Sequence record: OQ378934.1 | DNA from: Escherichia phage LH2 | DNA length: 64,000 bases | Direction: 5' to 3' (one strand) | In this document: positions 154 through 22,539 of the stretch, in pieces | Position numbering within the stretch: the first letter of the stretch is position 1 | Layout: every line of letters begins with the position of its first letter | The notes under the pieces: model-generated | Database searches by the model: none | What the model was told of the DNA's origin: nothing | Seen by the model: the letters and a program-made list of their open reading frames with translations, nothing else | Translations under genes and position numbers: made by a program

Positions 154-684
<531 letters not shown>

Positions 685-17916: not shown

Positions 17917-18390
17917 ATGTTATTGACTGGCAAATTATACAAAGAAGAAAAACAGAAATTTTATGATGCACAAAACGGTAAATGCTTAATTTGCCAACGA
18001 GAACTAAATCCTGATGTTCAAGCTAATCATCTTGACCATGACCATGAATTAAATGGACCGAAAGCTGGAAAGGTACGTGGATTGCTCTGTAATCTCTGCA
18101 ATGCTGCAGAAGGTCAAATGAAGCATAAATTTAATCGTTCTGGCTTAAAGGGACAAGGTGTTGATTATCTTGAATGGTTAGAAAATTTACTTGCTTATTT
18201 AAAATCCGATTACACCCAAAATAATATTCACCCTAACTTTGTTGGAGATAAATCAAAGGAATTTTCTCGTTTAGGAAAAGAGGAAATGATGGCTGAGATG
18301 CTTCAAAGAGGATTTGAATATAATGAATCTGACACTAAAACACAATTAATAGCTTCATTCAAGAAGCAGCTTAGAAAGAGTTTAAAATGA
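17917..18390 (+). CDS. 49: Endonuclease VII (Holliday-junction resolvase)
   Basis: 157 aa; MLLTGKLYKEEKQKFYDAQNGKCLICQRELNPDVQANHLDHDHELNG... matches T4 gp49; Zn-binding Cys and HNH-like core. Confidence 0.92.
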   Translation: MLLTGKLYKEEKQKFYDAQNGKCLICQRELNPDVQANHLDHDHELNGPKAGKVRGLLCNLCNAAEGQMKHKFNRSGLKGQGVDYLEWLENLLAYLKSDYTQNNIHPNFVGDKSKEFSRLGKEEMMAEMLQRGFEYNESDTKTQLIASFKKQLRKSLK

Positions 18391-18924
18391 CAATTGAAAA
18401 AGAAATTGAAGGATTGATTCATAAAACTAATAAAGACCTTTTGAACGAGAATGCTAATAAAGATTCTCGTGTTTTTCCAACTCAACGGGACCTTATGGCT
18501 GGTATTGTGTCTAAACACATTGCCAAAAATATGGTTCCGTCTTTTATTATGAAAGCGCATGAAAGCGGAATTATTCACGTGCACGATATTGATTATTCCC
18601 CTGCTCTTCCATTTACTAATTGCTGTTTAGTCGATTTAAAGGGGATGCTTGAGAATGGATTTAAATTAGGCAATGCTCAAATTGAAACGCCTAAATCGAT
18701 CGGTGTTGCTACTGCAATTATGGCACAAATTACTGCACAGGTTGCTTCACATCAGTACGGCGGAACGACTTTTGCTAATGTAGATAAAGTACTTTCTCCT
18801 TATGTTAAACGCACCTATGCAAAACATATTGATGATGCAGAAAAATGGCAAATCGCTGATGCGTTGAATTATGCTCAATCTAAAACAGAAAAAGATGTCT
18901 ATGACGCGTTCCAGGCGTATGAGT
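18387..18924 (+). CDS. nrdD: Anaerobic ribonucleotide reductase NrdD, exon 1
   Basis: Class III RNR N-terminal region; ORF runs into a stop inside the intron; exon ends with U at 18924. Confidence 0.85.
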
Positions 18925-19135
18925 TAATTTAATTCAGGCTCATGTAAAACCGGTCTAAACGGGGAACCTCTCTAGTAGACAATCCCGTGCTAAATGTTCT
19001 TTTGAACTAAATGCCTAACGACTAACCGTGATGAATGTAGCGGTGTAGAATAGAAGCTAATGCTATTCGAAACGGCCGGCATCGAAAGATGAAGATATAG
19101 TCTAATCTGCATGGCGACATGCAGCAGTCATCTTG

Positions 19136-19143
19136 TATAAATA
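19136..19143 (+). promoter_or_regulatory. Late promoter-like TATAAATA inside the intron, upstream of the intron ORF
   Basis: Exact octamer about 30 nt upstream of ATG 19173. Confidence 0.45.
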
Positions 19144-19172
19144 AGATTATCTTATGAATACGAGGTGAAACA

Positions 19173-19943
19173 ATGAAATGGATAAAAAGACGTTGTACTA
19201 AAATAAAAGATAAAGACGCATTTACATACTTAGTTAAGTTTTCTAATGGTGACATTTATATCGGTTATAAAAAATTTAGAACAATTAAAAACAAGCCCAC
19301 AAACTGGAAAACTTACACAACGTCATCTAAGTATATAAATGAACGCTTAAAAACTGATACACCTACTAAATGGATAATTTTAAAAACATTTGATAGTTAT
19401 AAAGATGCATTAAAACATGAAGAAGAGGTCATACGTAAATATTTTTATAGCAAAAAATGTTTAAATAAATCCATAGGCGGTAAAAAGTTTTATAAGCATC
19501 CGGATACTGAAGAACATATTCAAAAATTAAGAGATGCTCATAAGGGTAAAGTGTTATCCGAATCTCATAAAAACAATATAAAATCTTCTGTAGCTGAATA
19601 TTATGCTAAAAACGGAAGATCTAAGGAACATGTGCAAAATAATATCAATAGTCGAAAAAGTAAAAAACAAGTATCGATAAAGCTTAAAAATAAAACTTTT
19701 AGAAGTTTTAAAAAAGCAGCGGAATATTTAAATTGCACTGAAAGTGAAGTCGAAACTCATCCTCTTGTTTTGAGTATTAAGACTACTATTCATAAAGTTC
19801 CTGAATATGTGGTTGTTGACGGTATTAAGTATACGTCTTATATAGAAGCAGCTAAAGCGCTAAATTTTCATCCTAGCACTATAAAAGAACGTTGCATATC
19901 TATGGACTATCCAAATTTTGTTGTTTCATATAAACGGGCATGA
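19173..19943 (+). CDS. Intron-encoded homing-endonuclease-like protein
   Basis: 256 aa, entirely within the intron; degenerate GIY-YIG-like N-terminus (YLVKFSNGDIYIGY) and NUMOD3-like repeats (EEHIQKLRDAHKGK, SESHKNNIKSS). Confidence 0.7.
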   Translation: MKWIKRRCTKIKDKDAFTYLVKFSNGDIYIGYKKFRTIKNKPTNWKTYTTSSKYINERLKTDTPTKWIILKTFDSYKDALKHEEEVIRKYFYSKKCLNKSIGGKKFYKHPDTEEHIQKLRDAHKGKVLSESHKNNIKSSVAEYYAKNGRSKEHVQNNINSRKSKKQVSIKLKNKTFRSFKKAAEYLNCTESEVETHPLVLSIKTTIHKVPEYVVVDGIKYTSYIEAAKALNFHPSTIKERCISMDYPNFVVSYKRA

Positions 19944-19969
19944 ATTTGCGACTCATGCTGAATATAATG

Positions 19970-21249
19970 ATGAAGTAAATACACTTTTCAGCTCTAATGG
20001 ACAAACGCCTTTTGTAACAATTACGTTTGGCACGGGAACTGACTGGACTGAACGAATGATTCAGAAAGCAATTCTGAAAAATCGTATTAAAGGTCTTGGT
20101 CTTGACGGGATAACTCCTATTTTCCCTAAACTTGTTATGTTCGTTGAAGAGGGTGTTAATCTTTATAAAGACGATCCGAACTATGATATTAAGCAGCTTG
20201 CTCTAGAGTGTGCAAGCAAAAGAATGTATCCTGATATTATTTCAGCTAAGAACAATAAAGCTATCACCGGTTCATCTATTCCTGTTTCTCCAATGGGTTG
20301 CCGCAGTTTCTTGAGCGTATGGAAAGATTCGACTGGTAATGAAATTCTTGATGGACGTAATAATCTTGGCGTTGTAACACTGAATCTTCCTCGCATTGCG
20401 CTAGATTCTTATATTGGAACACAGTTCAATGAACAGAAATTTGCCGAATTGTTCAATGAGAGAATGGATTTATGTTTTGAAGCATTGATGTGTAGAATTA
20501 GTTCCTTAAAAGGAGTTAAAGCTACTGTTGCTCCTATTCTTTACCAAGAAGGTGCATTCGGGGTTCGTCTTAAACCTGATGACGATATAATTGAGTTATT
20601 TAAAAACGGTAGAAGTTCAGTGTCCCTAGGATACATTGGTATTCACGAATTGAATATTCTTGTCGGTCGTGATATTGGACAGGAAATTTTAACTAAAATG
20701 AATGCTCGTCTTAAGCAGTGGACCGAAAGAACTGGTTTTGCTTTTAGCTTGTATTCTACTCCTGCTGAAAACCTTTGTTATCGCTTCTGTAAACTTGATA
20801 CCGAAAAATATGGAAGTGTAAAAGATGTTACCGATAAAGGCTGGTACACTAACAGTTTCCATGTTTCAGTAGAAGAAAATATCACTCCGTTTGAAAAGAT
20901 TTCTCGCGAAGCCCCATATCATTTCATTGCGACAGGCGGTCACATTTCTTATGTTGAACTTCCTGATATGAAAAATAACCTAAAAGGTCTTGAGGCTGTA
21001 TGGGATTATGCTGCACAACATTTAGATTATTTTGGTGTTAACATGCCAGTAGATAAATGTTTTACATGCGGAAGTACCCATGAAATGACTCCTACTGAAA
21101 ACGGGTTTGTTTGTTCTATTTGTGGAGAAACTGATCCTAAAAAGATGAACACAATAAGAAGAACATGCGGATATCTTGGAACTCCTAGCGTTGTTCCTTG
21201 GAATTTAGGTAAAATGAAAGAAATGGTAAAACGAGTAAAACATGCATAG
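19970..21249 (+). CDS. nrdD: Anaerobic ribonucleotide reductase NrdD, exon 2
   Basis: Contains the C-terminal glycyl radical motif RRTCGYLG and Cys-rich Zn site CFTCGS...CSICG. Confidence 0.85.
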
Positions 21250-22072
21250 GTATTATATAATTTATAAAATAACAAATATAATTAATTCAAAGGAATATAT
21301 CGGTGCTCATAGCACCGATAATATAAATGATGGTTATATGGGATCAGGAAAATTGATTCATGCTGCTTTATTGAAATATGGCAGAAAAAATTTTTATAAA
21401 GAAATTTTACATGTTTTTGATAATGAAAAACAGATGTATGATAAAGAAGCTGAACTTGTAACTGAAGAGTATTGTCTAAAAGAAAACACATATAATATTA
21501 AACCTGGTGGCAAAGGTGGAACTGCCTATGAACAAACACTTGAACATCGCCGCAAAAATAGTTTAGCAAATAAAGGTAAAAAGAGAACAGCAGAAACTAA
21601 AATAGCTATTTCAAATGCTTTAAAGAACTATAAACGCACACCAGAACATCAAGCAAACATAAATAAAGCTGTAAGAACAGCCATGAAGCGAAAGGATGTT
21701 AGAAGTAAATTAACCGGAGAGCGTTCTGAGAAAGATAAATTATCTATATCAAACGGTGTTAAAAAATATTACAGTTCTTTGAGCGAAGAAGAACGTGAAC
21801 TTCATCGCAAGCGAATTATTGAAGGTAAAAAGAATTCTCCCATGACATTGGAATCCAGACAAAAACTTTCAAAATCTTTAAAAGGACTTCAAGTTGGTTC
21901 AAAAAATCCAATGTATGGAAAAATTTCTCCAACTAGCAAAACCGTTTCAGTTGACGGTATTAAATATGATTCAATTAAAAAATGCTCAAACGCCATAAAA
22001 GTTTCTAGACATCTTATATTAAAACGCTGTAATTCTACTGACGAAGCTTGGAAAAATTGGATATTATTATGA
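21242..22072 (+). CDS. Freestanding GIY-YIG homing endonuclease (Seg-like)
   Basis: YIIYKITNIINSKEYIGAHS...YMGSGKL GIY-YIG module plus NUMOD3 repeats; between nrdD and nrdG. Confidence 0.8.
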   Translation: MHRYYIIYKITNIINSKEYIGAHSTDNINDGYMGSGKLIHAALLKYGRKNFYKEILHVFDNEKQMYDKEAELVTEEYCLKENTYNIKPGGKGGTAYEQTLEHRRKNSLANKGKKRTAETKIAISNALKNYKRTPEHQANINKAVRTAMKRKDVRSKLTGERSEKDKLSISNGVKKYYSSLSEEERELHRKRIIEGKKNSPMTLESRQKLSKSLKGLQVGSKNPMYGKISPTSKTVSVDGIKYDSIKKCSNAIKVSRHLILKRCNSTDEAWKNWILL

Positions 22073-22539
22073 ATTATGACAGAATATACCCGTGTTGCTT
22101 TGTTAACGGTCCTGGGTGCCGAACTGTTCTTTTCGTTACAGGTTGTTTGCATAAATGTGAAGGGTGTTATAATAAATCAACATGGAACGCTAGAAACGGT
22201 GTTCCATTCACTGGTGAAACACTAGAACAATTAATTGAATGTTTGAATAATGATTATATAGAAGGATTAACTATAACTGGAGGAGACCCTCTCTATCCTG
22301 ATAACCGAGATGTTGTTCATTGCATTGTTCAAACAGTAAAAAATCTTTATCCCAATAAAAGCATTTGGTTGTGGACAGGATATAAGTTTGAAGATATTAA
22401 ACAACTAGAAATGCTTAAATATGTTGATGTTATTATTGATGGGAAGTATGAGAAAAATCTTCCGACCAAAAAGCTGTGGCGAGGTTCAGATAATCAGCGA
22501 CTTTGGTCAAATACCGATGGGGTGTGGAAACATGATTAA
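22069..22539 (+). CDS. nrdG: Anaerobic RNR activating protein NrdG (radical SAM)
   Basis: Cys-rich motifs CCFVNGPGC and CLHKCEGCYN; 156 aa. Confidence 0.88.
   Translation: MNYDRIYPCCFVNGPGCRTVLFVTGCLHKCEGCYNKSTWNARNGVPFTGETLEQLIECLNNDYIEGLTITGGDPLYPDNRDVVHCIVQTVKNLYPNKSIWLWTGYKFEDIKQLEMLKYVDVIIDGKYEKNLPTKKLWRGSDNQRLWSNTDGVWKHD

Follow-up and report, generated by a model that had tools for sequence, protein, structure and literature searches.

The 64,000-nt stretch of Escherichia phage LH2 DNA that we analysed (record OQ378934.1; hereafter the window) almost certainly carries, at positions 18925-19969 of its + strand, a mobile self-splicing group I intron in nrdD that is homologous to the nrdD (sunY) intron of phage T4 and lies at the identical site. 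Nothing in the window sequence contradicts this explanation. Since the 1980s, the T4 nrdD/sunY intron and its endonuclease, I-TevII, have served as textbook cases of RNA self-splicing and intron homing. Wherever splicing chemistry, promoter use, DNA cleavage or homing is discussed below, we extrapolate from experiments on the T4 copy, which is 66% identical to that of the window in DNA and 56% in protein.

The window comes from a Tequatrovirus, a T4-like phage, and the region around the nrdD intron is collinear with the T4 map, to whose minus strand the + strand of the window corresponds. The order of genes is gp49 endonuclease VII (17917-18390), nrdD and nrdG. The nrdD region has matches in more than 1000 phage records, with Tequatrovirus isolates at the top (96-98% identity). 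The original prediction had the nrdD frame running into a stop at 18930, and indeed the frame that starts at 18387 closes at a TAA at 18930-18932. The codons of the second part of the gene (~19970 to 21249) are in a different frame since the 1045 nt between the exons leave a remainder of 1 when divided by 3. Exon 1 (18387-18924, + strand) contains codons 1-179 and the first base of codon 180 and matches positions 1-141 of the Pfam NRDD profile with 139.5 bits; its length and end point are identical to those of exon 1 in T4. Exon 2 (19970-21249, + strand) matches positions 145-562 of the same profile with 409.9 bits and includes the glycyl-radical domain (Gly_radical, 88.4 bits), in agreement with the claim that this half of the protein is encoded in another frame about 1 kb downstream.

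Joining 18924 to 19970 yields 1818 nt that encode 605 amino acids and a stop, reading ...DAFQAYEYEVNTLF..., and the protein across the joined exons reads ...QAYEYEVNTLF.... The predicted spliced junction is ...GCGTATGAGT followed by ATGAAGTAAAT.... It was compared with two intron-less alleles, those of phages RB14 and Shfl2, which read TATGAAT/ATGAAGT across the site, the spliced junction of the window being TATGAGT/ATGAAGT. A shift of the boundaries by a single base fails to reproduce the RB14 and Shfl2 sequence, and the junction 18924/19970 is therefore unambiguous. Excision of 18925-19969 restores the frame and gives an nrdD that corresponds to intron-less alleles, with the 605-aa NrdD that had been anticipated. 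In T4, 1033 nt are removed at exactly the same exon positions, again resulting in a 605-aa NrdD, and the insertion point is identical in the two phages (GAGU before the intron, a terminal G, and AUGAAG after it).

The bases at the splice sites are those of a group I intron. As predicted, the interval starts after a U (U18924) and ends in G (G19969). The last exon base, U18924, forms a U.G pair with G18938 in helix P1, and a U.G pair at the 5' splice site is kept in four of the five introns in which it could be scored. The 3' splice site (19967-19969, + strand), read from the sequence, consists of AU and the terminal G19969. A19967 and U19968 could pair with U19106 and A19105 in J7/9, a putative contact resembling the P9.0 of the sunY literature. 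The equivalent pairs in T4 are A-U and A-U, that is, one compensatory change relative to the window.

The Rfam search that had been proposed as a check found the group I intron family RF00028 at 18893-19109, scoring 52.1 bits (gathering score 50; E 2.3e-10). This was the sole Rfam match in the 64 kb, and it covered the full model (1-253). The match exceeds the gathering score by only ~2 bits, and its alignment begins 32 nt inside exon 1, so the P1 and P2 columns are misaligned. Because of the small margin and because the first ~30 aligned positions fall on the exon, the structure was mapped by hand against that of T4. P1 (18918-24/18938-44) pairs the exon sequence UAUGAGU with the internal guide GCUCAUG and appears as a hairpin in the predicted fold; P2 is absent. 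The catalytic core as a whole (P3-P9) occupies 18950-19124 and contains P3 (18950-55/19074-79), P4 (18959-64/18983-88), P5 (18969-71/18977-79), P6 (18989-90/19013-14), P6a (18996-99/19004-07), P7 (19020-24/19098-19102, pseudoknotted with P3), P7.1 (19026-29/19040-43), P7.2 (19048-52/19064-68), P8 (19080-83/19088-91) and P9 (19107-13/19118-24), all on the + strand. P7.1 and P7.2 are located between the 5' strand of P7 and the 3' strand of P3; this is the criterion for subgroup IA in the classification of Michel and Westhof, and the intron has the fold of that subgroup. In addition, UUCA at 18933-18936 could pair with UGAA at 19971-19974 of exon 2 to form a candidate P10.

To this structure comparative evidence can be added. 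Between the window and T4, 51 of 51 pairs are standard, 11 of them changed on both sides and two on one side. A covariance model built from this pair of introns was used to align the cores of four further phage introns, namely those of two Justusliebigvirus loci, the terminase gene of Aeromonas phage 2L372D and nrdD of Vibrio phage F97. The Justusliebigvirus loci correspond in position to the region of the split nrdD in the related phage VEcB. Across the six introns, 99.7% of 290 cells pair and 23 of the 51 pairs show compensatory changes. None of 500 shuffles reached any of five measures for the six-intron structure, and in a control in which the partners were slid by 1-3 columns 29-42% of the cells paired. 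P1 keeps all seven of its pairs in the six introns, three of them with compensatory changes. P7.1 and P7.2 pair at 100%, with two and four compensatory pairs, respectively. P7 is invariant and hence uninformative for covariation. The helices P3-P9, including the P3/P7 pseudoknot, are all present in this set, with compensatory changes, and the conserved group I core of the original prediction is upheld by both the Rfam match and the P1-P9 covariation. The alignment model had P3 and P7 wrongly nested (11 wrong pairs), and these two helices were therefore not favoured by the fitting; the matches of that model were unambiguous. A structure in plain brackets, with P3 and P7 nested, was also scored and discarded: these two helices then pair in only 27% of cells, compared with 97-100% when P7 is drawn as a pseudoknot.

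At its 3' end the intron has a further hairpin, GGCAUGA/UCAUGCU (19937-43/19953-59, + strand; -7.6 kcal/mol), which overlaps the stop codon of the internal ORF at 19941-19943. T4 has the hairpin GGUAGAG/CUCUACU at the same place, the helix being preserved via several compensatory changes. Read on the minus strand, the 3' hairpin is also the sole terminator-like signal inside the intron. One GenBank record marks another hairpin, P9, as a terminator.

Most GenBank records of this lineage annotate two nrdD fragments as separate coding sequences and call the ORF a 'homing endonuclease' or 'hypothetical protein'; it is occasionally labelled 'intron-associated endonuclease 2' or 'group I intron endonuclease'. 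The common form of annotation would suit an arrangement without splicing, in which a free-standing endonuclease cassette has split nrdD and the halves are separate polypeptides, as with nrdA and mobE of phage Aeh1, or the gene is dead. Intron-free split ribonucleotide reductase genes are known in phages (PMC3653736). However, exon 2 has neither a start codon nor a ribosome-binding site of its own at the junction, and the U.G of P1 and the terminal G mark precisely the boundaries at which excision brings the two frames together. The core of the ribozyme has all its parts, exceeds the Rfam threshold and has 23 compensatory pair changes, and the homologous T4 nrdD intron is a proven self-splicing RNA (PMC2988022). 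Guanosine-dependent self-splicing has been reported for T4 group I introns, from autocatalytic labelling with GTP in vitro (a title cited in PMC3653736; reviewed in PMC2988022). Against this evidence we consider an arrangement without splicing extremely improbable, and we treat the interval as a self-splicing intron in what follows.

The intron belongs to the T4 nrdD/sunY lineage, as judged by the same insertion site and homology over the whole intron. Host gene, site, layout and regulatory design are shared with the T4 nrdD (sunY) intron and I-TevII, and NrdD has 605 aa in both. The common layout consists of a 5' ribozyme core of ~200 nt, a late promoter with a stem, an ORF for a GIY-YIG endonuclease and a 3' hairpin over the stop codon; the helices are the same (P1-P9 with P7.1 and P7.2, and no P2). 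The DNA identity of 66% extends over 97% of the length and is distributed unevenly: the core is 71% identical, the ORF 63% and the leader 53%. The window intron is 1045 nt long, compared with 1033 nt in T4. The loop of its sequestering stem contains 9 inserted nt, its P7.2 loop is 7 nt larger and its P8 is shorter, and its endonuclease has 256 aa, compared with 258 aa in T4. The nrdD exons of the two phages differ by only ~6-7%, and for this reason the intron lineages must be far older, or must evolve faster, than the host genes. The original prediction made no mention of the element being a divergent allele of the textbook T4 intron.

Other phage introns were compared as well. The td/I-TevI and nrdB/I-TevIII introns of T4 are likewise group IA introns in genes of nucleotide metabolism, but they occupy other sites in other host genes, and I-TevIII, unlike the product of the window ORF, is of the HNH type. 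In the td and nrdB introns, too, the ORF is expressed from its own late or middle promoter and the ribosome-binding site is hidden in read-through RNA (PMC2988022). Our covariance model matches the td-type intron of phage PspYZU05 in two parts that flank the I-TevI ORF, whereas the window ORF is downstream of P9. The ribozyme cores of the introns in Justusliebigvirus nrdD, the 2L372D terminase gene and F97 nrdD are clearly homologous to that of the window (97-170 bits with the covariance model; 68-81% DNA identity over ~190 nt), but their insertion sites or host genes differ. Among related IA introns the cargo differs or is absent: F97 has an HNH endonuclease, and VEcB a 169-aa hypothetical protein.

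The internal ORF (19173-19943, + strand, 256 aa) is a homing endonuclease gene of the I-TevII family. Compared end to end with T4 I-TevII, 144 of 257 residues are identical (56%; E 1e-101) with two gap positions (1%), a full-length homology that bears out the description of the ORF as endonuclease-like. The protein is composed of a GIY-YIG catalytic domain at residues ~9-100, a linker, and NUMOD1/HTH-like modules at ~171-193 and ~216-241. Pfam PF19835 (SegE_GIY-YIG) matches residues 9-86 with 26.6 bits (cut-off 25), and NUMOD1 matches two stretches of the ORF with 25.3 bits (cut-off 22.8). The canonical GIY-YIG model, PF01541, gives 10.3 bits, below its cut-off of 22.6, and the assignment to the GIY-YIG class consequently rests on PF19835 and on the homology to I-TevII. 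With these two the ORF does contain a GIY-YIG catalytic domain. Two details of the original prediction have to be revised. The N-terminus had been called degenerate, but its motif, FTY-x9-YIG, is not very degenerate and PF19835 is above its cut-off. The repeats had been called NUMOD3-like, but Pfam finds no NUMOD3 in the ORF even at E<=10, and NUMOD1 instead; T4 I-TevII, by comparison, has a sub-threshold NUMOD3 at residues 109-125 (18.8 bits versus 20.4). All coordinates in the prediction were correct.

A profile of the two I-TevII proteins was also compared, using hhalign, with a profile of I-TevI and one Seg-like enzyme. The match had 94.7% probability and spanned the catalytic as well as the C-terminal DNA-binding parts. 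FTY17-19, YIG29-31, E83/E84 and N98 are invariant between the window ORF and T4 I-TevII, and their putative roles follow from the analogy with I-TevI. Searching PDB sequences with the ORF yielded nothing at E<=10, and no NCBIfam family matches it. Relative to T4, dN is ~0.38 and dS ~1.5; the resulting dN/dS of ~0.25 indicates purifying selection on the endonuclease since the lineages split.

Upstream of the ORF is an exact match to the T4 late-promoter consensus, TATAAATA, at 19136-19143 (+ strand). This is the late-promoter motif that had been noted at 19136; it is placed like the I-TevII promoter of T4 and cuts through a stem. The stem has 11 bp (19128-38/19159-69, + strand), with UCAUCUUGUAU pairing with AUACGAGGUGA, and the promoter octamer lies in its 5' arm and loop. 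The AUACGAGGUGA arm contains the Shine-Dalgarno sequence GAGG (19163-19166), five bases before the ATG region. The predicted fold of this stem together with P9 has -27.6 kcal/mol (z -5.5), and none of 200 shuffles was equally stable. RNA beginning at 19150 is predicted to be unfolded (0 kcal/mol). Thus, at the level of sequence and fold, the octamer is placed such that late transcripts would drop the 5' arm of the stem. T4 has an equivalent stem and promoter, and regulation of I-TevII by the late promoter and hairpin, as well as its homing, has been described (PMC2988022, PMC1865063). Promoter use has been demonstrated for T4 only (PMC2988022).

The octamer is not enriched in the 64-kb window (6 observed versus 10.6 expected). 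Since this count is not above chance, the octamer alone is uninformative and its meaning comes from its position. In such an AT-rich window the copy at 19136 might be a chance match, with the ORF translated only from read-through pre-mRNA or from excised intron RNA. We consider this quite improbable, because the octamer aligns with the TATAAATA in the late promoter region upstream of I-TevII in T4 even though the leaders are only 53% identical, and a late start would take away exactly the 5' arm, by which the stem masks the Shine-Dalgarno sequence. We therefore retain the octamer as the predicted late promoter of the endonuclease gene. It is labelled a late promoter in the record of phage SA20RB. 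Downstream of it, TATGAATACGAGGTGAAAC (19153-19171) is invariant between the two lineages, in contrast to the leader overall. A scan for sigma-70 promoters found nothing relevant on the + strand.

In T4, a stretch resembling the homing site has been noted as a possible autorepression operator. In the window, the invariant stretch TATGAATACGAGGTGAAAC shows such a resemblance: when the homing site is compared with the ORF leader, the best match is 14 of 20 bases (CGTATGAGTATGAAGTAAAT versus CTTATGAATACGAGGTGAAA at 19151), which 19 of 300 shuffles equalled; in T4 it is 13 of 16 bases, with three of 300 shuffles as good. This marginal match is a hint of a putative autorepression operator in the ORF leader.

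The distribution of the intron among phages is patchy. A 400-nt probe of the spliced junction matched 689 phage records, ~620 of which are uninterrupted, and the full-length intron is present in 68 records. The endonuclease of the window occurs in 44 records at >=95% protein identity and that of the T4 type (56% identical to the query) in ~24, with nothing between the two groups. The carriers of this lineage (the window, N2, SA20RB and 215Ecol030PP) share exon changes, CCAGGCG upstream and ACACTTTTCAG downstream, that are missing in T4, RB14 and Shfl2. The shared tract ends at differing distances among the carriers, as co-conversion tracts do. At exon position -2, carriers of either intron type have a G that pairs in P1 (with C18940 in the window), and intron-less alleles have A.

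Copies with a damaged endonuclease gene were also found. In phage 215Ecol030PP the ORF is deleted from the intron, which is reduced to 479 nt, and in phages F1 and FN the ORF is frameshifted and in two pieces. As intact, frameshifted and ORF-deleted copies coexist, several stages of endonuclease decay are present in one lineage. Such decay, together with the sub-threshold score of the canonical GIY-YIG Pfam model, would fit an intron that splices but whose endonuclease is inactive, so that it is stranded and passed on by vertical inheritance alone, as is the T4 nrdB intron, whose I-TevIII is truncated. On the other hand, at least 15 independent phage isolates have the window ORF at its full length and with 100% identity. 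Its FTY...YIG, E83/E84 and N98 residues are invariant relative to the active I-TevII, and its dN/dS is ~0.25. Moreover, carriers whose nrdD genes otherwise differ have the intron-linked exon flanks in common, over lengths that vary, which is the pattern that recent homing would leave. An inactive endonuclease thus appears unlikely to us, and we prefer to regard the intron as mobile.

By analogy with T4, the following sequence of events can be proposed. Early and middle transcripts would read through nrdD, and the first ~200 nt of the intron would fold into the P1-P9 ribozyme. Guanosine would attack after U18924, and exon 1 would then attack after G19969, so that the ligated exons form the mRNA for the 605-aa NrdD. 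In these long transcripts the 11-bp stem would lock the ribosome-binding site of the endonuclease. Late in infection, transcription from the TATAAATA at 19136 would begin inside the stem, leaving the site free, and the 256-aa I-TevII-type GIY-YIG endonuclease would be made. Where a co-infecting phage has an nrdD allele with no intron, the enzyme would cleave that allele close to the insertion site, and double-strand-break repair would copy the intron and a short stretch of flanking exon into the cut allele. For T4 I-TevII, cleavage of intron-less nrdD and homing have both been shown experimentally (PMC1865063, PMC2988022); for the present lineage, the patchy distribution and the intron-linked exon flanks lend them indirect support.

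The element is real and ordinary: it is a divergent sister of the T4 copy and has already been widely sequenced. With the T4 nrdD/sunY intron and I-TevII long established, it offers little new biology. Our literature searches, whose coverage excluded most subscription papers, found no paper on the divergent nrdD intron lineage. Its value for annotation is that records of this lineage should carry a joined nrdD coding sequence and an intron feature. A modest evolutionary interest lies in two intron lineages ~34% apart at the same nucleotide of genes that are only 6-7% different. We also suggest, as a tentative and rather doubtful possibility, that the nrdD intron and endonuclease described here form a second lineage, deeply diverged and in competition with that of T4 for one homing site. 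Current databases have more records of it than of the T4 type (44 versus ~24). Since its endonuclease is 44% different from I-TevII and the DNA-binding C-terminus is the most diverged part (52% identity), target recognition or cleavage may differ between the two enzymes. If so, the two lineages would lend themselves, as a natural pair, to work on how the specificity of homing endonucleases is re-tuned at one fixed site, and the enzyme would provide a second scaffold beside I-TevII for engineered GIY-YIG nucleases.

The final ~80 nt of nrdD (window ~21170-21249, plus strand) diverges sharply from the corresponding sequences of T4, RB14 and SA20RB. Against these three phages we counted 32 mismatches in 78 nt at the 3′ end of the gene, compared with 0-12 per 60 nt elsewhere. 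As a consequence of this divergence, the C-terminal ~24 residues of NrdD, directly after the glycyl-radical motif RRTCGYLG, are altered. Phages N2 and 215Ecol030PP share this divergent end, and a seg-like gene lies directly 3′ of nrdD in both the window and N2. The divergent end looks like exon sequence that was imported together with the seg-like gene.

Between nrdD and nrdG the window carries a free-standing GIY-YIG endonuclease ORF of 276 aa (21242-22072, plus strand), while T4 has the HNH gene mobC at this position. The ORF matched the Pfam families NUMOD3 (29.5 bits) and I-TevI_DNA-bd (20.8 bits), and scored 49 bits with TIGR01453, under the cut-off of 56. The ORF begins at an ATG overlapping the nrdD stop codon, and its own stop codon overlaps the nrdG ATG at 22069. 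About 72 phage records contain a protein at least 90% identical to it, the top match being 96% identical and none identical. Mechanical ORF calling placed nrdG at 22048-22539 (plus strand), starting from a TTG at 22048; the T4-like start is probably instead the ATG at 22069 (MNYDRIYPC...).

The intron lineage of the window also includes decayed members, in phages 215Ecol030PP, F1 and FN. The copy in 215Ecol030PP (locus L004, 1701-2179) is 479 nt long and has lost almost the entire ORF, with the ribozyme core and the 3′ end still intact. In F1 and FN (records H117 and H118) the endonuclease ORF is in two pieces. Most public records of this lineage give nrdD as two separate genes without a joined CDS. 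In the record of SA20RB the P9 hairpin of the intron (locus L003, 2221-2248), the counterpart of window 19107-19134, is labelled 'rho-independent terminator'.

The octamer TATAAATA, which matches the T4 late-promoter consensus, was observed six times in the whole window, rarer than the 10.6 copies expected from shuffled sequence. Two exact copies, 13 nt apart, are located close to the window start (156-163 and 169-176, plus strand).

IA ribozyme cores close to that of the window's intron, with 68-81% identity over ~190 nt, were also found in other phage genes or sites. They occupy a second nrdD position in phi92-like phages (loci L005 from VEcB, and L009 and L010 from Justusliebigvirus), the large terminase gene of Aeromonas phage 2L372D (L006), and nrdD of Vibrio phage F97 (L007), where HNH ORFs accompany the core. 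One and the same ribozyme appears to move with differing cargo.
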